From an uncultured Dehalococcoidia bacterium (GTDB lineage: Bacteria > Chloroflexota > Dehalococcoidia > Lucifugimonadales > UBA3495), in the NCBI GenBank assembly GCA_950072105.1, contig CATMOE010000092.1, forward strand, positions 1 to 10,607: DNA of 10,607 nucleotides, in the 5' to 3' direction. This document shows positions 2-10,607 of this stretch, piece after piece (position 1 is the first letter of the stretch; each line of letters begins with the position of its first letter). Below the pieces are notes generated by a model. It saw only the letters and a list, made by a program, of their open reading frames with translations. It had not been told where the DNA came from and ran no database searches. The translations under genes and the position numbers were made by a program.

Positions 2-1129
2 CACGAAGCAGGGCGTCTCCTTTCCCGCTACGGCGGGATTCTTGGGGCCGCGGACCGTGACTATGAAGGGGCTCAACAGGCGCTGGGGCGGGCGATCGCC
101 ATCGCCAGGAGAGAGGAGGATGTGCCGCTGGAGATTCAGGCCTTAACCTATGCGGCCGATGTGAGCGGGCAACACCTCCACTGGCAAGAAAGCGTGGACA
201 ATGGGCTGCGGGCCATCGAACTGGCCGCGAGCATTGAAACTCCCCAGTCTGAGCTCCATTCCCGTTATTGGACGTCGATAAGTCTGCTTCACATGGGTGA
301 TCTGAACGCCGCCCGCCCCCACACGACCGTCATGCGAGACCTGGCTCAGAGTCGAAGGACGCCCAGAGAGCTTGCCGGCATCGGCTTTGCGCCGATCACA
401 ACCCTGTCGTGCCTTGAAGGCGACTGGAAAGCAGGCCGTGAATACAGCGACCAGGGCCTGGAGGTTTCACCCTTAAATCCGATACTCCTATCACCCCGAG
501 TTCTGTTGGAGCATCAAACGGGGGAGTCCGGGCAAGGCGAAATCTACCTGGAGCGGCTCCTGGAGACGATGCGCCTGGCCGGTCCAGATCAATCCCAGGC
601 GTCCGTCAGGGCGTCCATGGCCATCGCCGCGATAGCCCGAATCACCGGTGTCTCCTACCGATTGGAGATAGCCGAGGCAGCCGCCGAGGCAGTGCTCTCA
701 AACCAATCTGTCGCACCCCTTAACGTCATGTACGCCAGAGCCGGGTTGGCATTTCTTGCCGTGCAGAAAGGCGATCAGCCCGCGATAGAGGAGCAGTATA
801 GCTATTTTTCGAGCCATCAAGGCACGATGATATGGACGTTTGCGTCGGTAGACCGGCTGCTGGGTATCCTTTCCTAAGCGATGGGTCACTTGGACCAGTC
901 TGCCGGGCACTTTCAGGACGCGCTGGCGTTCTGCCGCAAAGCCAAGTACCAGCCCGAACTGGCCTGGACTTGCTTCGACTACGCCGATTCTCTTCGTGAG
1001 CGTCGTGGCGAAGGCGACCGGGCTAAGGCCATCACGCTACTGGACGAGTCCCTGACCATCTCCAGTGACCTGAGCATGCGTCCTCTGATGGAGCGGGTGC
1101 TGTCCCGGTGAGAGATACTGAAGGCGTAA
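2..1129 (+). pseudogene. 3' part (TPR-like helical region and conserved tail) of a kinase/AAA ATPase/TPR STAND-like gene, interrupted by in-frame TAA (875-877) and TGA (1109-1111); 5' end lies outside the window
   Basis: The frame is open from nt 2 (HEAGRLLSRYGGILG...AQQALGRAIAIARREED), matching HAAGRLLFRYGYVLG...AQKAVEAALAIAEREGD of the minus-strand paralogue. ORFs 122..877 and 881..1111 share this frame. Read through, it gives LLGILS*AMGHLDQSAGHF and MRPLMERVLSR*EILKA*, versus LLGLLAHTIGDLDQAAAHF and MRPLMERVLSRREILKA* in the paralogue. Confidence 0.85.
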
Positions 1130-1219
1130 GCCAACCTCGTGGTCCGAAAAGTACGGAAACAGCTGACCCATCCGTTCTACGTGTTACGATTGTCGAGATC
1201 ACACCAAAGTAGAGAGCAG

Positions 1220-3352
1220 ATGAACATGCAATCAACCATCATCGGTGCGCCGGTTCCTCAGATCGAGGGACCGGCAAAAGTCACGGGACGAACGCGCTAC
1301 GCCGCCGACGTGGATCTACCCGGAATGCTGTGGGGCAAGATTCTGCGCAGTCCCCATCCCCACGCGCGCATCCTTAGCATCGATGCCTCCGCAGCCTGGA
1401 GCGTCCCCGGCGTAAAGGCCGTGGTGACGGGACAGGACGCCCCCGGTCACTTGATGGGCAAGGTCCTTCGGGACATGCCCGTTCTTTGTTGGGATAAGGT
1501 TCGCTACATCGGCGACCGTGTGGCGGCGGTGGCCGCGGAGACCCTTGAAGCCGCCGAAGAAGCGATATTATTGATTGAGGTCGACTACGAGTTGCTGCCG
1601 GCGGTCTTCGACCCCATGGAGGCCATGAAACCGGATGCTCCCCTCATCCATGACGATATCGCGTCCTACCACGGCGCGCCTCTTGACGTTCTCGCAACGG
1701 ACGTGCACAACGGCCAAACCCGCCTCGCCTGGGAAAAAGGCGATCTGGCCGAGGGGTTCCGCCAGGCCGATGTCGTCTTGGAACACTCCTTTTCCGTCCC
1801 CAGCCGTCACCAGGGCTACCTTGAGCCCTTCGCCAGCGTCATATACATCGACGATGACGGCCGAATCCAAGCCTGGAGTTCCAGCAAAGCCCCATTCCGG
1901 GCGCGATTGCAACTGGCTCAGGCGATGGGCTTGCAGGACGAGGATATCCGGGTGAACGTCGTCTCGGTGGGGGGAGACTTTGGCGGAAAGGGAGACACTC
2001 GCGACCTTCCCGTCGCCTACCTGCTGGCGAAGATGACCGAGCGTCCGGTGAAGATCGTGATGAGCTATTGGGAAGAACTCACCGCCAGCAATCCCACCCA
2101 TCCCACCTTCGTAACGATTCGCTCGGGAATGACCAGGGATGGGCATCTGACCGCCCGTGAAGTCCGAACGGTCCACGCCAGCGGAGCCTATGGAGCCATG
2201 AAGCCCCGGTCGTTTCTCTCCACATCCCATTACGTCGGCGGAGGATACCGGATACCCAATACGTCCTTCGAATTTCTGCAGGTGTGCACCAATACCACGC
2301 CTGGTGGATACTTCAGAGCGCCGGGGGCTCACCAATACACCTTCGCCCTGGAATGTCACACCGACCTGCTGGCCCAGGAATTGGGGATGGACCCGGCTGA
2401 GTTCCGGCGGATAAACCTCGTCGATCCGGGCGATGAGGACGCCGTGGGCCGGCCCTTGCGCGTGGCGGACGTCCGTCCAGTATTGGAAGCCGCCCTGGAA
2501 GCGAGCCGTTGGGGAGAGCCAAATGGTGGACCGGGCCGCGGCAAGGGAGTCGCCATCTTCGGCCGTCAGATAGGCGGCGGCGCAGCGGGGGCCGTATTGA
2601 CCGCCGAGGCCGACGGCGCATTCACCGTCCTCAGTCCCACGGTGGACGTCGGCACGGGTACTCACACCATCGAGCAGCAGATGGTCGCCAACGAGATGGG
2701 GGTGCCGCTGTCCCAGGTGCGCGTGAGCCAGGGCGACACCGACAGCACGCCATTCGACGAAGGCCCCCGGGCCAGCAGAGTTACCTACACCGAAGGTCAA
2801 GCGGTGATGAAGGCCTGTGAGCAGATGCGGCAGGCGATCCAAGACGGAGCCAACCTCCCCCTGACGATCACCGTCGAGCACGATGCCCCGCAGCCGGAAG
2901 ATGTCATGTACTTCAGCGCTCAGGTAGCCGAGGTGGAAGTGGACCGGGAAACCGGTCAGGTAAAAGTGATCCGAGTGGTCACCGCCCATGACGTGGGCAC
3001 CATCATCAACCCGCTGGCGCATCAGGGACAGATCGACGGCGGATTCGTAACGGGTCTCGGCCTGGCAGTGACTGAGGAGTTAGTGACCGAGGATGGTCAG
3101 GTCCTTAACGGCAGTCTAGGAGATTATAAGCTGCCCACGATGTCGGACATCCCGCCCCTGGAGACGGTTCTGGTGCATACCGGCGGCGGAGAGGGACCGT
3201 ATCAAGCGAAGGCCATCGGAGAATTGGCTAACAATGCCACGGCAGCCGCCATCGCCAACGCAGTCGCCGATGCTGCAGGTGTCCACTTGTTCGAACTACC
3301 CATCACGGCGGAGAAAGTTTACGCGGCACTGGTTTCAAGCCGCGACAACTGA
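1220..3352 (+). CDS. Xanthine dehydrogenase/aldehyde oxidase family molybdopterin-binding (large) subunit
   Basis: Family motifs: KVTGRTRYAAD, LRSPHPHARI, DKVRYIGDRVAAVAA, YLEP, VGGDFGGK, FRAPG, DVGTGTHT, AHDVGTIINP, GQIDGG, DYKLPT, AKAIGE (catalytic Glu). Start is probably ATG 1220 or 1226 after AGAGAG (1211-1216), not GTG 1139. Confidence 0.95.
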   Translation: MNMQSTIIGAPVPQIEGPAKVTGRTRYAADVDLPGMLWGKILRSPHPHARILSIDASAAWSVPGVKAVVTGQDAPGHLMGKVLRDMPVLCWDKVRYIGDRVAAVAAETLEAAEEAILLIEVDYELLPAVFDPMEAMKPDAPLIHDDIASYHGAPLDVLATDVHNGQTRLAWEKGDLAEGFRQADVVLEHSFSVPSRHQGYLEPFASVIYIDDDGRIQAWSSSKAPFRARLQLAQAMGLQDEDIRVNVVSVGGDFGGKGDTRDLPVAYLLAKMTERPVKIVMSYWEELTASNPTHPTFVTIRSGMTRDGHLTAREVRTVHASGAYGAMKPRSFLSTSHYVGGGYRIPNTSFEFLQVCTNTTPGGYFRAPGAHQYTFALECHTDLLAQELGMDPAEFRRINLVDPGDEDAVGRPLRVADVRPVLEAALEASRWGEPNGGPGRGKGVAIFGRQIGGGAAGAVLTAEADGAFTVLSPTVDVGTGTHTIEQQMVANEMGVPLSQVRVSQGDTDSTPFDEGPRASRVTYTEGQAVMKACEQMRQAIQDGANLPLTITVEHDAPQPEDVMYFSAQVAEVEVDRETGQVKVIRVVTAHDVGTIINPLAHQGQIDGGFVTGLGLAVTEELVTEDGQVLNGSLGDYKLPTMSDIPPLETVLVHTGGGEGPYQAKAIGELANNATAAAIANAVADAAGVHLFELPITAEKVYAALVSSRDN

Positions 3353-3389: not shown

Positions 3390-3722
3390 ATGAGCATATA
3401 CCGTGTCTACCCCACAGATGATGGGGAAAGTCATATCGAAGAAGTCGATCTGGCCAATTATCCCGAGTTGAAAGCATTGATGCATGTCGCCCAGGTTGGA
3501 ATACACGAGTTTCCCGAACTGCGATTGATGGATTTCCATCCGCTGACCGAGCGAAGGCTAATCATCCATTTGCGGGGTGAGGTGGAGTTAGAGTTGAGCG
3601 ACGGGAGCAAACAGATATTCGGCCCCGGAGACGCCCGCCTCATGGAAGACATCCACGGCAAGGGACACCACCATCGAGATCTGAGCCCGGTGATACAAGC
3701 CGTGGTGGTGCTCGAAGACTGA
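3390..3722 (+). CDS. Small cupin-fold protein (110 aa)
   Basis: ATG at 3390 preceded by AGGAGAGAGG. Motifs DDGESH, FHP, LRGEVELELSDG, FGPGD..LMED..GKGH fit small cupin-barrel proteins. The ORF-track start at 3234 overlaps the upstream gene and is unlikely. Confidence 0.8.
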   Translation: MSIYRVYPTDDGESHIEEVDLANYPELKALMHVAQVGIHEFPELRLMDFHPLTERRLIIHLRGEVELELSDGSKQIFGPGDARLMEDIHGKGHHHRDLSPVIQAVVVLED

Positions 3723-3732
3723 ACTTAGTGGG

Positions 3733-4749
3733 CTAAACGTCGATCGAATAAACCCGCTTGGCGGTATCGTGGAACATAGCGGCTCGTTCCGAGGCTGAGT
3801 ATCCTTGGGACAGCCGCTTGAAGGCGTTAAAAATGACGTTGTACGAGTAGGATATCTTGTCCACCGGGAAGTTGCTCTCGAACATGCAACGGTCCGCGCC
3901 GAACTGTTCGATGCAGTGATTCATGAGGGGCGCCAGCGTACCGGCCAGCTCCTCCGACCCGACTGGGACATCTCGACCCGCCCAATCGTACCCGTACCGC
4001 GCCTGTCCCACGCCGCCCAGCTTCATGATTATGTTGGGACATTTGGCTGCGGTTGCCACTCCCCTGCGCCACTCGGCGAGCACCTCGTCATCCCGGTTGG
4101 CGTAAGGACCCACCCGTAGCAGCCCGCCGACATGGTTCAGCACAATGGTTAGATCCGGCACGGCGTTGGCGAAATCGGCCAACTCATCCAATTGGGGGAA
4201 GTACAGGGAGTTTTCCAGCACTAACCCCATCTGGGCCATGACTCTGGCGCCGGCGCGGTAACCGTCGGAGCCCAGGACGCCCCGTATCTCCCGGTCCACC
4301 ACGTCGGGGCTGGAGTCCCAACCCACCGAGTGGCGGACGCCTCGAAAACGGTTGGGGCTGGCGGCCTGGAGCGCTTCGAGGACCGGCCGCACTCCCTCGC
4401 CCATCTTCAAGTCGGCCTTGCCGATGATTGCGGCGGCGGCCCGGCCCGGTCCGTGGGCGCCACTGGCGCTTTCATCGGCGATCTTCTGAACAAACTCCAC
4501 CTCGCCCACCGGCCGCATCTCCTCGGGACCGTCCGTCCGGTATTCGGCCCTGACTTCGATAAACACCGTGGAGCGGACGTTGTGGCCGCTGTTGATGTCC
4601 GCCGCCAACTCCGGCAACAGGTATTCCTGGTACGCCAGCGGCTCGGGCCGGTGCGTCCACAGGTGGTGGTGCGGGTCGCAGATGGGCAACTCCGGCTCCA
4701 AAGTGGCTTCCTGAGTCTGCGCCAGCCAGGCGGCGTCTCCTATGGGCAT
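3733..4749 (-). CDS. Amidohydrolase family protein (Amidohydro_2 / lactonase-like TIM barrel)
   Basis: ICDPHHHLW metal-binding motif, RFRGVRH, IVLNHVG, PNIIMKLGG, FGADRCMFESNFPVDK and C-terminal FHDTAKRVY. GGAGG RBS lies upstream of ATG 4749. Confidence 0.93.
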   Translation of the reverse strand: MPIGDAAWLAQTQEATLEPELPICDPHHHLWTHRPEPLAYQEYLLPELAADINSGHNVRSTVFIEVRAEYRTDGPEEMRPVGEVEFVQKIADESASGAHGPGRAAAAIIGKADLKMGEGVRPVLEALQAASPNRFRGVRHSVGWDSSPDVVDREIRGVLGSDGYRAGARVMAQMGLVLENSLYFPQLDELADFANAVPDLTIVLNHVGGLLRVGPYANRDDEVLAEWRRGVATAAKCPNIIMKLGGVGQARYGYDWAGRDVPVGSEELAGTLAPLMNHCIEQFGADRCMFESNFPVDKISYSYNVIFNAFKRLSQGYSASERAAMFHDTAKRVYSIDV

Positions 4750-4878
4750 GGTTGATCCTCCGTTGTGATGGTCCTCGGTCAGGCGAGGCGGCGGGGAATT
4801 TATAGTCTACAGGCGTTTTTCTGTGCGCTTCTTACTTCAATTTGACACAGCATCTAGTTAATTGTGACCGATAAAAAT

Positions 4879-4959
4879 CACCCCCATCCTAACCTCCCCC
4901 CGTAAAGGGGGAAGGGATTTGTCCTCGATCCCTTTACGGGGGAGAGTTAGAGAGGGGTG
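4879..4959. repeat. Inverted doublet of REP-like palindromic units (REPIN/BIME-like), intergenic
   Basis: Unit 1 (4879-4917) is CACCCCCATCCTAACCTCCCCCCGTAAAGGGGGAAGGGA. The reverse complement of 4921-4959 is CACCCCTCTCTAACTCTCCCCCGTAAAGGGATCGAGGAC. Both share CACCCC..CTAAC..CCCCCGTAAAGGG, and unit 1 has an internal CCCCC/GGGGG hairpin. Confidence 0.8.
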
Positions 4960-4997: not shown

Positions 4998-6722
4998 CTA
5001 AACGTCTTCCACCGCCACCGTAGCTATCCCATAAGTACCGTAGAAGAAGTGGGCGTAGTGGGTTGAACCGCCGGTGACGAAGAGCAGGTATTGCTCCGGG
5101 CTTTCCAACGCGGGGATGGTCGCCTTGGGGTCTTCCTCCAGGTGTTGAAGCTCGGGATGGTTCAGCCACTTGCCGTCGGCGTCCTTGGGAACTCCTCGGG
5201 CGCCGATGGCGTCTTGTACGGAAATACGGCACTTTTCGTGGAGCCAGGCTTGGGCGTCCTGCTTGCTCATCCCGGCCTCGGCCATGATGACGGCGCGAGA
5301 CGGGCTGAGGATGATGGGATGGTAGGGGCCCTGATAGGGCACTCTCTTGTTGGTGTGGCCGACCTGGGCGGACTGCCAACCCCTAATCCAGCCTCCGGCG
5401 CCGGCGTTCTTGTAGAACATCATCGAGGCGATGTTATTCAGGGTGTCCTCATGGGACCGGGAAGTGGAATCGATGACCGTCGTCGGACCGGTGACGGTGA
5501 CAACGGTGACCGCGCTCTCGTCTCGCTGGAACCCCATATCCATATGGTAGGGCTGCCAGGGACTGACCTCTTCGTTCTCGGCGATGCACATCCCGAACTT
5601 GGACGGCAGGCCGACGAAGTTGGGGTCTCCCGCCCCGGCGTTGCAGTAGCCGATATTGATCAGGCACAGCCGCAGCGCCCGGCCGATGGCCGTGTTCGCG
5701 CTGTTGATGACACCCGGGCCCATGGCCGTAGTCCCAAAGTTTAGACCAGCTTTCTTGGCGATGGGGCCGTTCACCAGGATTATGGGCGCTTCCGTGTGGC
5801 CGGAGACCTGCATGTCCCGGTGGTTCATCTCCGGTTTGGCCAGGCAGTCGATGGCGGCAAGGAGAACCGGGAATTGCTCCGGCCGGCAGCCTGCCATGAC
5901 GGCGTTGATGGCGATCTTCTCGACCGTCGCCAGCCCAAAGCCGGGCTCCATGACCAACACCACGTCCTGAGGGGCTCGTTTGGTCCCCTTGAGCATCTGC
6001 TCGACGGCGGCCGGAGTGGGCGGCATTACCGGGATGCCGTCGCTCCAGTCCCGTTCCGCTAAGAAACGGTTCACTGCGTCCAGACCCTCCGGTGTTTCGT
6101 CCATCTCCACGGTGAAGGTCTCGGTGGCTTGGCCACCGGCCCTGGCCTTCCGGACATTCCCTGACGTAGCGGGAATCGTGGTGAGACCACGGATGATGTC
6201 GTCGATCTGCTCGTCCACCATCTTGTTTATGAAGTCCGCCTGCTGACCGGTGGTGGCGTGGGGAATGGTGACGAAGGCGGTATTGGGCTGTCCCCATCCG
6301 TCAACGCAGGATTGCCAAGCTCTAGCAAAGCTTCGGGCGGCGATGGCTACGGCGGGAACGCCTGCCTTCTCGACGGCAACCATGTCGTGGGCAAGCCACG
6401 ACGTGCAGCCCCCTCAATGAGCGGTTGCGCCGACCATGGCGTCGATCTCCTTGGCGATCAGCGCCCCTTCCTCATCATCGATATGATTCCCCCGGCTTAG
6501 GGCGGGACGGCCGGACCTGAGGTCGCCGCCGTACCTCTCGAACTTGACGTTGGGGAAGCGCTCGCTGATGCGCATGGCCACCCGTTCAACGGCGATATCC
6601 GCGCCGCCGGTCATGTTGTTGTACAGGCCGATGGTCTTGCCCTCAAGGCTGGCCAGGCGAGGGGCTGGCGGGACCTTGAAATCGACTCTGTCCGCCGCCG
6701 GGGACATGATCTGCAACTTCAT
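4998..6722 (-). CDS. Probable selenoprotein, 574 aa with Sec103: UGSC-family-like N-terminal domain (UGGC motif) fused to a large conserved domain of unknown function
   Basis: ORF 6414..6722 (AGGAG RBS) ends in TGA at 6416-6414, in frame with ATG 6383 (33 nt apart, no other stop). Read-through gives GATAH-U-GGCTSWLAHDMVAVEKAGVPAV. A hairpin follows the UGA, and ATG 6383 has no RBS. C-terminal motifs include WSDGIPVMPPT, TVEKIAINAVMAGC, ANTAIGRALRL and AENEEVSPW. Confidence 0.88.
6375..6413 (-). promoter_or_regulatory. Putative bacterial SECIS element immediately 3' of the in-frame UGA
   Basis: mRNA reads UGA-GGG-GGCUG-CAC-GUCGUGG-CUUGC-CCACGAC-AUG-GUUGCC. GUCGUGG/CCACGAC (6402-6396 / 6390-6384) is a perfect 7-bp stem, extendable by CA/UG and GGC/GCC. 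The apical loop begins 17-18 nt after the UGA. Confidence 0.7.
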
Positions 6723-6738
6723 CCTGTTTCTCCTATCG

Positions 6739-7170
6739 CTACCAGGTTAGGTTGGGGACTCTTTCCTGTAAAACCTCGCCGAACAGCGTCAACACCTGGT
6801 CTATCCTGAGAACAACTATGGCCACTTCTATATCCGGCGGTGGCATCCCGGACTCGGCCAACCGCCCCATCACTTCGTCATAAATCGGACCATCTCGATG
6901 TACGGTTGCGGTGCAGCGAAACTTCCACCCCACTTCCTGTCCCGAGTCACGGAACAGGACAACTACCTTGGGATCCGTTTCGATGTGATCCAAGGGCCGG
7001 CGGCCGCTGCGATCGCGGTACGCCAGCGACGCATCGTCGTACGCCAACACGGTGCCGATGAATCCGGCGTTGGGAGTGCCATCGGGCGAGGCCGTAGCGA
7101 CGATGCATGGATTCCCGCTGGCTCGGGCGCCGTTGACGAGTTCGCGCATTTCATCAGTCAAATGAATCAT
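6739..7170 (-). CDS. Pyridoxamine 5'-phosphate oxidase-like split-barrel flavin/deazaflavin-binding protein
   Basis: 143 aa with CIVATASPDGTPN, DHIETDPKVVVLF and WKFRCTATVH, the typical beta-strand pattern of PNPOx-like proteins. Its stop is 16 nt before the selenoprotein start. Confidence 0.82.
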   Translation of the reverse strand: MIHLTDEMRELVNGARASGNPCIVATASPDGTPNAGFIGTVLAYDDASLAYRDRSGRRPLDHIETDPKVVVLFRDSGQEVGWKFRCTATVHRDGPIYDEVMGRLAESGMPPPDIEVAIVVLRIDQVLTLFGEVLQERVPNLTW

Positions 7171-7415: not shown

Positions 7416-10400
7416 TTACGCCTTAAGTATTTCCCGCCGGGACAGCACCCGCTCCATCAGGGGCCGCATACCAAGTTCGCTGGAGATGGCCAGGGACTCG
7501 TCCAGCAGGGACATGGCCTTGGCCCGGTCCCCCTCACCGTTACGCTGGAGGAGGGTGTCAGCATAGTCGCAGCAAGTCCAGGCCAGTTCGACGCGGTAAC
7601 CAGCGCGGCAGAACGACAAAGCGTCTTCAAAGTGGGCCGCCGCTTGGTCCAAGTCGCCGATTGTGTGGGCGAGAAGGCCCAGCAGCCTCTCGAAGCACAT
7701 TATGCCTTGAACCGGCATCCCCCGATGCCCGGGTTCTAGGAAATCGTACAGATCTGCAGCGGTCTTAGCATCTTGCCGGTTTACAGCCATTAGTGCCAGA
7801 CTGATTCGGATCGCATGGGTTATTACCGGGGCAGCAGTTGAGTCTGATAGAACGGCTTCCCCTGCTCTCTGAGCTATCGGAACCCGGCCAACGTCGCCGG
7901 TAATGCGGGCTACGTAGGGAATAATCAAGGCGGCGAACGAGTGGGCCGTAGGGGCGGAGCCCATAAAATCCAAAAGTTCACCCAGGTAATGGTCTCCTTG
8001 GTCGATGTTCCCTAGCTCGCGCTCCAGTGCCGTAAAGCGGTCGAGAAGTCCAGAAAATCCCGGAGATACCGCTAAGCCTCGTTCACCGAGGTGCCGAGCG
8101 TTCTGCCAGTCCCCCATCGAATGGTGCACGATCATGTTGTAGTGAAACGCCATGGCCTGGGAGTTCCCGCCGCGGAGCCGTTCCGACCCAATTAGCATGG
8201 CGGCGGCATGTTGCTGGGCGCCCTCCAGGTCCCCTTTGCAATAAAGGGCTAACGTAATGTCACCTTTGGCCCTTACTTGGACCATGAGGTCATCGGACGC
8301 CGTGGCTAGCTCCAAAGCCCGCTGGCTTTTCTTAAGCCATTCGTCAAAATTGAGATTGTACCGGTCGACCCTGGCGGCATCGGCCAAGATTCTCATCTCT
8401 AGGCCTAGATCTCCCTCCCGCTCCGCGATGGCCAATGCCGCTTCTACCGCCTTCTGAGCGCCGTTGAAATCGCCTGCCTCCAAGCCCAAGACGTAACCAT
8501 AGCGGAAGAGCAGCCGGCCCGCAGCGTGGGAATCGGGTGGCACCAGGGATAAGGCTCGGGAAATCAAGTTGGAAATCCCGGTGTCACCACCAGAAACCGA
8601 TTCGTATGGGTATTCCGCAACGGATACAGCCTTCTCCACATCCCCAGCGGCAACGAAGTAGTCGAAAGCCCGCCTCAAAGAAACCACCGGTTCATGAAAT
8701 TCAAGCCTGTCGACGGTGGACAACATGGCGCGCCCTTGCCCAAACAATAGGGCTGCGGCCTCTTTATCCGCCGCAGGCTCAGAACCGGTCAGCGCGACGC
8801 CTTTGGCCGTCAGCCCCCGCTGGAAATGAGTCTGCGCCTCTTCCCAGGCAAACGCGGCCAGGGCACGGTCCCCTGCCAGCAACGAATACCGGACCAGCCG
8901 GTCTGACCCTAAAACGGTTTGGGCTTCGGCAAAGTGGAAAGCCAGCTCTGCGGCATGGCATTCGGCCTCCTCGCCATAAGCCTCTTCAAGGGATTCGGCG
9001 ATTCGGGCGTGAAGCCGCACCTTCCTGGTGGTGGACAGTTCCCCGGCCAGGGTCTCCTTAATCAGGGCATGGGTGAACTGATAGCGCCCCACCGTGCTTG
9101 TCATCTCTTCGATGACCCGCGACGCCAGCGCCTCCTCCAGCACCTCCAGCAGCCGGTCGTCACTTACGTCTTCGATTAAGGGCCGTAGGTGTTCCAGAGT
9201 GAATTCCCGGCCAATGACCGACGCAATGGTCAGGGTTTCGTTGCAACGCTCCGACAACCGGTCCAGCCGCCGTCCAATGACCTCTCTCACGCCTTCGGGG
9301 ATGCGGACGCTCCAAGAATCCCGCTGACCGGCCTTCTCCGGGGTCAGTTCCCCTTCCTGCACCAGCAGCCGCACCACTTCGGTGACGAACAGTGGGTTTC
9401 CTTCGGTCTGCCGATGCACCGCTTCCACCATGCCCTGGGGTGGTGCGATGCCCGAGACCAACTCGATGAACCGGCCCACGTCTTCCTGAGTCAGTCCCCT
9501 TAACAACACCCGCTGGAATAGCCTATCCCGGTTCAGCTCTCCCAAGGTCAGGGAAAGGGGATGCCTACGGGACAGTTCCATATCCCGATAGGTCCCAATG
9601 ACCAAAAGACGGCTGCCAGGTAGCTCACGAGCCACAAACTCCAACAACAGCAGCGATGGATGGTCCGCCCAGTGAAGATCGTCCAGCACCAACACCAAAG
9701 GTTGGCGTTGCGAGGCGCTTTTCAGAAAGGCGGTCATGGAGTCGAATAATCTGAACCGGGCTTGCTCCGGTTCCAATTCCGGCGGCGCCGCTAGACCTGG
9801 CAGTTTTTCCGAGACGTCGGACACTATCCCGGCGATGTTCGCCGCTCCGGCGCCCATCTCCGATCTCAGCTCCTCCGGGTCTTTGTCCCGCACATAGGAC
9901 CGGATCGCCTGGACCCAAGGCCAGTAGGGAGGCGCGCCCTCTCCTTCGTAGCAGCGGCCCCACAAAACCTGGGCATGGCGCAGTCCAGCGTAGGTTGCTA
10001 ACTCCTGGGCGGTTCGGGATTTCCCGATACCCGGTTCACCAACCAGGGTCAGCAAACGACCCCGGCCAGAAAGAGCGTCTTCCAACGCGGCTTTTAGATC
10101 GCCCATCTCCTGTTGCCGCCCGACGAAAACGCCCCCGGCCAGGCTGTCCACGGCGTGGGCTTCGTTGTCCCGTAGGGGCGCATGGCCATGCGCCCCTACG
10201 TCCGCGTCTGCCAGGTCTATGGCGTCTAGGGCGGACAGTACGTCGGTGGCCGACTCGGGGCGTTCGGACGGGTCCTTGGCGAGTAACCGCAGGATGAGGG
10301 CATCCAAGGCCCGTGGACACTGCCCGTTGTGCCAGGTGGGGGCTACCGGCGGGGTGTTGATGTGCTGGCCGATGATTGCTACCGAATCGTCTCCCAGGAA

Positions 10401-10517
10401 GGGAGGTCTGCCCGTCACCATCTCGTAGAGCATGGCCCCCAAGGAGTACAGGTCGGACCGGGGCGTTACCTCTCCGCCCATGGCTTGCTCGGGCGGCATG
10501 TAGGACACGGTAGTCAT
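7416..10517 (-). CDS. STAND-like protein: truncated Ser/Thr kinase C-lobe, AAA_16-type ATPase and TPR-like helical region (possibly a 5'-truncated pseudogene)
   Basis: Kinase subdomains VIII-XI are present (TVSYMPPEQ, RSDLYSLGAMLYEMVTGRPPF, LLAKDPSERP). Also FVGRQQE, Walker A GEPGIGKS (10040-10017), Walker B LVLVLDDLHWAD, TEGNPLFVTE and YQFTHALI. No GxGxxG, AxK, HRD or DFG upstream. Start uncertain: ATG 10517, ATG 10499 or GTG 10592. Confidence 0.85.
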   Translation of the reverse strand: MTTVSYMPPEQAMGGEVTPRSDLYSLGAMLYEMVTGRPPFLGDDSVAIIGQHINTPPVAPTWHNGQCPRALDALILRLLAKDPSERPESATDVLSALDAIDLADADVGAHGHAPLRDNEAHAVDSLAGGVFVGRQQEMGDLKAALEDALSGRGRLLTLVGEPGIGKSRTAQELATYAGLRHAQVLWGRCYEGEGAPPYWPWVQAIRSYVRDKDPEELRSEMGAGAANIAGIVSDVSEKLPGLAAPPELEPEQARFRLFDSMTAFLKSASQRQPLVLVLDDLHWADHPSLLLLEFVARELPGSRLLVIGTYRDMELSRRHPLSLTLGELNRDRLFQRVLLRGLTQEDVGRFIELVSGIAPPQGMVEAVHRQTEGNPLFVTEVVRLLVQEGELTPEKAGQRDSWSVRIPEGVREVIGRRLDRLSERCNETLTIASVIGREFTLEHLRPLIEDVSDDRLLEVLEEALASRVIEEMTSTVGRYQFTHALIKETLAGELSTTRKVRLHARIAESLEEAYGEEAECHAAELAFHFAEAQTVLGSDRLVRYSLLAGDRALAAFAWEEAQTHFQRGLTAKGVALTGSEPAADKEAAALLFGQGRAMLSTVDRLEFHEPVVSLRRAFDYFVAAGDVEKAVSVAEYPYESVSGGDTGISNLISRALSLVPPDSHAAGRLLFRYGYVLGLEAGDFNGAQKAVEAALAIAEREGDLGLEMRILADAARVDRYNLNFDEWLKKSQRALELATASDDLMVQVRAKGDITLALYCKGDLEGAQQHAAAMLIGSERLRGGNSQAMAFHYNMIVHHSMGDWQNARHLGERGLAVSPGFSGLLDRFTALERELGNIDQGDHYLGELLDFMGSAPTAHSFAALIIPYVARITGDVGRVPIAQRAGEAVLSDSTAAPVITHAIRISLALMAVNRQDAKTAADLYDFLEPGHRGMPVQGIMCFERLLGLLAHTIGDLDQAAAHFEDALSFCRAGYRVELAWTCCDYADTLLQRNGEGDRAKAMSLLDESLAISSELGMRPLMERVLSRREILKA
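10171..10200. repeat. Perfect 30-bp palindrome, GTAG-type REP-like element inside a coding region
   Basis: CGTAGGGGCGCATGGCCATGCGCCCCTACG is identical to its own reverse complement and has GTAG/CTAC ends. It lies in the kinase-ATPase linker and translates as (D)VGAHGHAPL(R). Confidence 0.85.
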
Positions 10518-10607
10518 ATTGATATTAGACACACAAAAAACTGGATTGAGCGTTCGGGGATGCGGTGAGGCTGCGTACCGCCCACCGCCCACTCATGTTG
10601 CACCATT

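Follow-up and report, generated by a model that had tools for sequence, protein, structure and literature searches.

A UGSC-family gene of a Dehalococcoidia bacterium, split at an in-frame UGA: a very probable fused selenoprotein with probable remote kinship to GrdB and PrdB

Does the TGA at positions 6414..6416 of this DNA end one gene ahead of another, or does it encode selenocysteine (Sec, U) inside a single longer gene? The window, that is the whole analysed stretch of 10,607 nucleotides, yields two pieces on its minus strand under standard ORF calling, at 6414-6722 (102 aa) and 4998-6383 (461 aa). With TGA read as U, the minus strand from 6722 to 4998 forms a single frame of 574 aa, with one internal TGA and a terminal TAG (5000-4998); the plus strand of 4998..6722 has several stops. 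The codon falls at residue 103, in the context T-A-H-U-G-G-C-T-S-W, and is followed by GGG GGC TGC, where TGC (6405..6407) encodes Cys106, the candidate resolving cysteine.

The start of the gene is preceded by an AGGAGA (6729..6734, minus strand), 6 nt 5' of the ATG at 6722, and purine-rich motifs also lie upstream of the orthologue starts. No AGGAGA-like motif is found upstream of the ATG at 6383 (6381..6383, Met114), in agreement with an earlier note on this DNA that placed a ribosome-binding site solely at the upstream start. This internal ATG is the gene callers' false start of the 461-aa fragment. The same note had predicted that gene calling splits the gene and drops its catalytic motif; indeed, the best 120 database protein matches are all fragments of 447-462 aa covering 78-80% of the query, so split annotation is the rule in databases. 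Upstream on the minus strand, a PPOX/pyridoxamine-oxidase-like gene (6739..7170; PF01243) ends 16 nt before the start. It is possibly co-transcribed with the selenoprotein gene; present at 2 of 80 orthologous loci, it is not a conserved partner. Neither a sigma-70 promoter nor a terminator was found on the gene's strand, no tRNA was found in the window, and an Rfam search gave no match.

A GC-rich palindromic intergenic repeat (4877-4957) lies 40 nt 3' of the gene's stop. Copies of it are spread over 47 contigs of the genome, about 71 in all; it folds at -51 kcal/mol and has no Rfam match, and a repeat finder did not pick it up; RNA-library contigs from other loci pile up on it in numbers. The palindrome is REP-like, and may terminate or stabilise the transcript.

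We followed the codon across relatives of the gene. A collection of species genomes gave 112 matches, the best 80 of which serve here as orthologous loci (77-96% identical, with titles mostly of Dehalococcoidia or SAR202). All 80 carry TGA at this column, with no further stop within the match, and all 80 read UGGC, so that UxxC is kept; Cys106 is invariant in the 80 aligned sequences. Two orthologues, 82-83% identical, stand in records titled Gammaproteobacteria and Entotheonellaceae (L076 and L085), which indicates transfer or misbinning. In a sample of the same bacterial family, 36 of 60 genomes hold an orthologue of at least 67% identity, each with one TGA (one copy is in two pieces), and selA is detected alongside it in 34; the two genomes in which selA was missed are 67% and 88% complete.

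Further away, the column is mostly cysteine. Among 150 distant representatives 41 span it, and the 36 fused homologues that are left once five proteins of 709-741 aa without a UGSC match are set aside show Cys (29), Ser (3), Ile (2), Thr (1) and Gly (1), with neither Trp nor Arg. Cys106 is kept in only 49 of 80 distant fused homologues and missing in 31. At metagenome loci with UGSC (n = 70) the column is U in 62, C in 7 and D in 1. The UGSC-bearing haloarchaeal plasmid copies have Cys in 7/7; selenocysteine is not known from haloarchaea.

The genome (4.08 Mb, 92% complete, 6% contamination) carries selA, selB and selD, all over their cut-offs, together with tRNA-Sec (selC), and selD itself has an in-frame TGA. 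Both the sel genes and homologues aligning across the TGA had been proposed as checks in the earlier note, and both are found. TGA terminates 227 of the 820 long ORFs of the genome; the codon is thus not reassigned and serves there as an ordinary stop. Contigs from the RNA libraries of two studies, which may hold DNA and carry no information on strand, level or co-transcription, cross the Sec codon with 0 and 1 differences.

Positioned 12-30 nt 3' of the UGA is the hairpin GUCGUGG-CUUGC-CCACGAC (6402-6384, minus strand), a candidate bacterial SECIS with a 7-bp stem and a folding energy of -9.6 kcal/mol. Its geometry fits a bacterial SECIS model of 4-16 bp in the stem, 3-9 nt in the loop, 16-37 nt from UGA to loop and at most -7.5 kcal/mol (PMC13188914): the loop here has 5 nt and lies 18 nt from the UGA. 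The earlier note had seen this hairpin; conservation bears it out, stability alone does not, as it is no better than that of shuffles (z -0.11 to -1.68, with 13 to 82 of 200 shuffles as good). Support for the hairpin lies in conservation. When synonymous variation is measured over 461 ten-codon windows (the window's sequence plus 79 loci), the nine lowest all start at codons 99-108 and the lowest reaches 0.44 against a median of 1.00, which makes the hairpin behind the Sec codon the most synonymously constrained stretch of the gene. Leu110 is CTT in 80/80 loci and Ser108 is TCG in 79/80; six hairpin pairs are kept in 80/80, and one of these six alternates between G-C and G-U. Across the genome's 12 paralogues, one stem pair reads C-G in 7 copies and G-C in the other 5; the covariation score, which kinship may inflate, is reached by 0 of 500 shuffles, and the encoded W, H and D constrain part of the stem. 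The predicted loop, CUUGC (54/80) or CUUAG (26/80), contains no consensus G unless the two top G-C pairs open into a 9-nt loop; at the matching loop position, 10 of 11 paralogues have G.

Altogether, the gene almost certainly encodes one selenoprotein, in which SelB would read the hairpin behind UGA103 and Sec would be inserted. The central claim of the earlier note, that the two called ORFs are one 574-aa UxxC protein, is upheld, with the minus strand now added to it. That the TGA instead simply terminates translation (between two genes or in a pseudogene), arises from a sequencing error or has been reassigned throughout the genome is very improbable. Such readings gain from a hairpin that is not unusually stable by itself and from a predicted loop without the G of the bacterial SECIS consensus; they are opposed by the uniform TGA of the orthologous loci at their 77-96% identity, the Cys of homologues at the column, the many long ORFs that TGA does end, the RNA-library contigs of two studies that span the codon, and a 461-aa piece that would begin inside the UGSC domain without a ribosome-binding site.

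What, then, is this protein? Residues 5-181 (6180..6710, minus strand) match the Pfam family UGSC (PF24696) with 99.1 bits against a gathering threshold of 25 (E 4e-28, model positions 2-171 of 172), the family to which the earlier note had likened the N-terminal region. The NCBIfam model NF041046 scores 86, below its cut-off of 125 bits. By these profile scores the product is a divergent Pfam UGSC member, outside NCBI's equivalog; the literal UGSC motif is absent, replaced by UGGC throughout the best 80 of 112 orthologues. Zhang and Gladyshev presented UGSC in 2008 as a major selenoprotein family of the ocean, guessed a Trx-like fold for it and already showed a 'UGSC/Unknown_1' fusion (PMC2398784). 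The Unknown_1 block in Figure S1A of that paper, A-x-N-x-V-M-A-G-C-x-P, matches residues 271-320 here, including C279. NCBI, for its part, already names a fused 580-aa protein UGSC family. With the 2008 fusion in print and this protein named, both the family and the fusion are known, and our gene is a further member of a known, functionally uncharacterised family and no new kind of system. The variant motif and the fusion stressed in the earlier note are present; their novelty was overstated, as the fusion appears in the 2008 paper and UGGC also occurs outside the gene's subfamily. In a quick tree of fused forms, the window's gene falls in a distinct long-stemmed clade (SH-aLRT 100).

The genome has 11 other UGSC genes, all with TGA and UGSx motifs, each adjoining a separate partner gene in either order (one pair is truncated at the edge of a contig, and a small ORF separates the members of another). 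The adjacent pairs of unfused homologues foreseen in the earlier note are thus the arrangement of 11/11 other paralogues. In the bacterial family, PF24696 occurs in 60/60 genomes with 405 matches (1-28 each, median 6), and each of the 150 matches listed contains one TGA. In a phylum-wide sample, which includes the unpublished genome G097, it occurs in 13/151 genomes, with 1-2 matches each except in the window's genome. The SAR202 pangenome paper (PMC6946804) does not contain 'seleno' in its main text, and among the literature found on SAR202 and selenocysteine no title concerns the UGSC module.

The UGSC domain is joined to its partner by a variable linker, TTIPATSGNVRKARAGGQATET (residues 181-202; 6117..6182), the least conserved part across orthologues, with a pLDDT lower than the rest of the full-length model. 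The partner domain, Unknown_1 (residues 200-574; 5001..6125), matched no Pfam or NCBIfam family. Its conserved residues are D228, C279, N343, R348, N356, D366, C379 and E382: C279 is kept in 121/132 sequences and C379 in 104/132, and the D, N, R and E are near-invariant. Modelled alone, it reaches a pLDDT of 93.8. The best fold match has a Z of 5.0 among 48,161 chains, an absence of match that is not the same as a new fold; in Foldseek, neither PDB nor viral models gave a row with an E of 0.001 or lower (the top row is fumarase, E 5.6e-3), and PDB sequence searches with the protein and with a profile gave nothing below E 0.5. Two candidate relatives of the partner were rejected at the sequence level: GrdE/PrdA, with an HHalign probability of 0.1 against 9 GrdE-like loci and no PF09338 match, and class I fumarase, with a probability of 0.7 for fumarase alpha.

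UGSC and partner travel together. At 79 metagenome partner loci, UGSC is fused in 30, present in the same locus in 40 (70/79 in all) and not found in 9, of which 7 have a short flank; both gene orders exist among unfused pairs. Five proteins of 709-741 aa (P0164, P0169, P0212, P0239, P0241) have two query-matching stretches and no UGSC Pfam match, and are probably tandem partner domains. The module is also seen fused to AhpC/TSA (P0257), ferredoxin-thioredoxin reductase beta (P0242), faint NifU-like (P0194) and copper amine oxidase N-terminal (P0262) domains.

In the full-length model (pLDDT 93.7, pTM 0.94), the N-terminal domain is a doubly wound sandwich of repeated beta-alpha units. Searched as part of that full-length model, it has flavodoxin/Rossmann-like entries as its best fold rows, none of which stands out (Z up to 10.9, rmsd 3.0, 124 aligned); the rows listed include no thioredoxin-named entry, and no Trx-type Pfam family matches.

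Sequence profiles point to another relationship. The 70-column alignment of a UGSC profile (64 rows) with a PrdB/GrdB-like profile (28 of 33 matches, with G097 and locus-less ones left out) places Sec on Sec and has an HHalign probability of 94.8 and a pairwise E of 4.9e-8. As a control, both profiles were searched against the genome in 42,672 six-frame segments. The UGSC profile has the three GrdB-like genes as its top three non-self hits (E 8e-4, 1.1e-3 and 0.015), and the PrdB/GrdB profile has UGSC paralogues as its top four (E 2.5e-4 to 0.0098); the window's gene itself scores E 1.5 in the latter test. The UGSC domain is accordingly a probable remote homologue of the GrdB/PrdB Sec domain, by a weak signal over about 70 residues. 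The literature covered, which leaves most subscription journals outside, contains neither a link of UGSC to GrdB/PrdB nor a structure of PrdB.

The same genome encodes three pairs of GrdE and a GrdB-like selenoprotein (C45:8259-10874, C78:4137-6840 and C13:59994-62700; L129-L131, L183, L188, L190). Two of the three GrdB-like proteins have UGTS, not UxxC. Two PrdB-like selenoproteins with UPxC (C105:1560-2798 and C31:33556-34800; L132 and L134) continue for 254 residues beyond Sec and are longer than clostridial PrdB.

A natural Cys homologue was divided into its two halves, and these were modelled as a complex. The model scores 0.88, against 0.00 for the best of 3 controls, on a scale whose mark is reached by 116/157 solved complexes and 2/215 mismatches; the runs share at least 90% of contacts and the partner has a pLDDT of at least 90. 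As the inputs are halves of a naturally fused protein, with an alignment that we built ourselves, the score supports domain packing more than binding of free subunits. The Sec-equivalent Cys lies at the modelled interface, with the equivalents of the conserved T308 column, N356 and P260; the list of named interface residues does not include the counterparts of C279 and C379, unnamed ones being uncertain. If UGSC packs on the partner with Sec at the interface, as modelled, the fused protein would be the single-chain form of a two-subunit enzyme. The two-component redox enzyme on one chain that the earlier note had suggested is thus borne out in its two-part design, by gene pairs and models, and its redox role is still something we infer.

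The genomic surroundings of the module may offer clues to its substrate. No conserved operon was found for the subfamily of the window's gene, whose top neighbour cluster occurs at 26 of the 80 loci (best 80 of 112). In the window, a molybdopterin xanthine-dehydrogenase-family large subunit (1139-3352), a cupin-like ORF (3390-3722) and an amidohydrolase_2 (3733-4749) each occur several times in the genome (23, 14 and 6 tblastn rows, respectively) and are not conserved next to the selenoprotein gene. The gene cluster of the window is flanked by paralogous kinase/AAA/TPR-type genes at 122-1111 (plus strand) and 7416-10592 (minus strand); the first is 41% identical to the tail of the second and is broken by a TAA at 875-877. 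Of 24 plasmid records found for the partner 19 were opened, and in the 17 annotated regions trxB lies near the pair in 3, CoA transferases in 6 and TRAP/tripartite tricarboxylate transporters in 8; one region has the order trxB-trxA-partner-UGSC. Around the metagenome loci (n = 79), TctC is the commonest neighbour (8/79), MmgE/PrpD occurs at 4/79, and 1 of 97 scanned neighbours (97 of 245 ORFs) is TrxB-like. These neighbours point to catabolism of small organic acids, as raw counts with no background control. Possible substrate leads come from Natrinema and Arthrobacter, where phosphosulfolactate synthase genes lie close to the pair (L288, L294), and from Sporomusa and Vibrio, where aconitase X with DUF126 adjoins motif-less fused forms (L292, L301).

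Our best guess at the chemistry, to which we give slightly less than an even chance, is that the enzyme uses Sec to cleave a bond reductively in some small organic compound and is recharged by thioredoxin. The mechanism proposed for D-proline reductase has the PrdB Sec attacking the alpha-carbon, a Cys resolving the selenoether and a redox partner restoring the enzyme (PMC3091704). From the homology to GrdB/PrdB and the interfacial Sec we infer a similar logic for UGSC, with a different partner. The fused protein would work like protein B of glycine or D-proline reductase. The small organic substrate, probably a carboxylate that carries a heteroatom as its leaving group, would be bound and activated by the partner domain; attack of the selenolate on carbon would break a C-N, C-S or C-O bond; Cys106, or a partner Cys, would free the product as an Se-S bond forms; and thioredoxin with thioredoxin reductase would restore the enzyme. 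The partner would take the place of the pyruvoyl subunit GrdE/PrdA, to which it has no similarity, and the paralogues would each serve different substrates. Clues to the reductant are trxB near the pair in 3/17 plasmid regions and the partner's fusions to AhpC/TSA or ferredoxin-thioredoxin reductase beta. Reductive cleavage is weakened by the loss of the resolving Cys in 31/80 distant fused homologues, by the short and weak GrdB similarity with a partner that has no GrdE/PrdA link, and by a subfamily without a conserved neighbour and so few TrxB-like genes among those scanned.

Other chemistries were weighed against this. Sec might instead act in redox-neutral covalent or acid-base catalysis, adding to an activated double bond or taking an alpha-proton, in an organic-acid isomerase, epimerase or lyase that needs no reductant. 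Fused homologues that do without the second Cys would suit such an enzyme, as would the neighbours TctC, MmgE/PrpD, PrpF, lactate racemase, aconitase X, isocitrate lyase/PEP mutase and CoA transferases. Yet these neighbour counts are low and have no control, the genome's own GrdB-like proteins also lack the second Cys in two of three cases, the nearest detectable relatives are reductases, and trxB/trxA genes and redoxin fusions accompany the module; we hold this chemistry to be unlikely. To about the same degree we doubt that UGSC is an electron relay only, with catalysis at C279 and C379 of the partner, in the manner of a thiol-dependent reductase or peroxidase that the Sec module recharges. 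The conservation of both cysteines and of the near-invariant D, N, R and E would fit such a relay, and so would the AhpC/TSA fusion (P0257), the 709-741 aa proteins without a UGSC Pfam match and the 2/79 loci where UGSC is missing although either side has 1 kb of flank or more. It is the Sec-equivalent Cys, however, that touches the partner in the model, the equivalents of C279 and C379 being absent from the named interface residues (unnamed ones are uncertain), and the homology is to substrate-attacking GrdB/PrdB, not to relay proteins.

A metal or Fe-S centre bound by Sec103, Cys106, Cys279 and Cys379, as in Fe-S hydro-lyases, seems improbable. All four positions are Cys in 38/80 fused homologues and at least one of the four is absent in 42/80. 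Class I fumarase (Z 4.3, with an rmsd of 5.1 over 186 aligned residues), serine dehydratase and CyuA do appear among the weak fold rows, and a fumarase tops the Foldseek rows; these fold scores, however, lie within common background and find no echo in sequence, given the HHalign result for fumarase alpha.

Returning to reductive cleavage, we can sketch what it would mean. The recoding itself is ordinary, and family and fusion are already in print; added here are the GrdB/PrdB kinship, the flavodoxin-like model, a partner domain that finds no clear PDB match, the position of Sec at the modelled interface and the presence in 60/60 family genomes. It is conceivable, though we would not call it probable, that UGSC and its partner form an undescribed class of selenium-dependent bond-cleaving reductases, in which a GrdB/PrdB-derived Sec module sits on a domain of new fold, which binds the substrate and takes the place of the pyruvoyl subunit. 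SAR202-type Chloroflexota would then harbour a paralogue expansion (the 405 matches in 60 genomes, up to 28 each) that was missed as every copy is split at the UGA, and with it a means of attacking recalcitrant dissolved organic matter by reduction, alongside the monooxygenase and enolase expansions already known in them. Since the best 120 database matches lack the catalytic residue and UGSC is in all 60 genomes, surveys of SAR202 enzyme expansions would have missed it. Kinship with GrdB/PrdB, a two-domain model of high confidence and a form on one chain together offer a concrete protein and mechanism for testing.

Finally, we compare the protein with known systems. With the UGSC family and the 2008 fusion it shares Sec at the family column and a C-terminal domain with the Unknown_1 motif block (PMC2398784); it differs in H-U-G-G-C where the family has D-U-G-S-C, in a predicted SECIS loop without the usual G, and in a model with flavodoxin/Rossmann-like best fold rows where that paper guessed a Trx-like fold. 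Thioredoxin-fold UxxC selenoproteins (Trx, Grx and Prx-like) likewise have their UxxC after a strand, at the point where a helix begins, whereas the model here is built of repeating beta-alpha units with flavodoxin/Rossmann-like rows. With selenoprotein B of glycine, sarcosine and betaine reductase (GrdB/F/H, PF07355) and with PrdB of D-proline reductase (TIGR04483) it has in common, by remote homology with Sec on Sec, a strand-UxxC-helix-strand unit, and also a larger partner. In contrast to them, it matches neither PF07355 nor TIGR04483, its gene has no grd/prd operon nearby, and its partner is unrelated to the pyruvoyl proprotein GrdE/PrdA.
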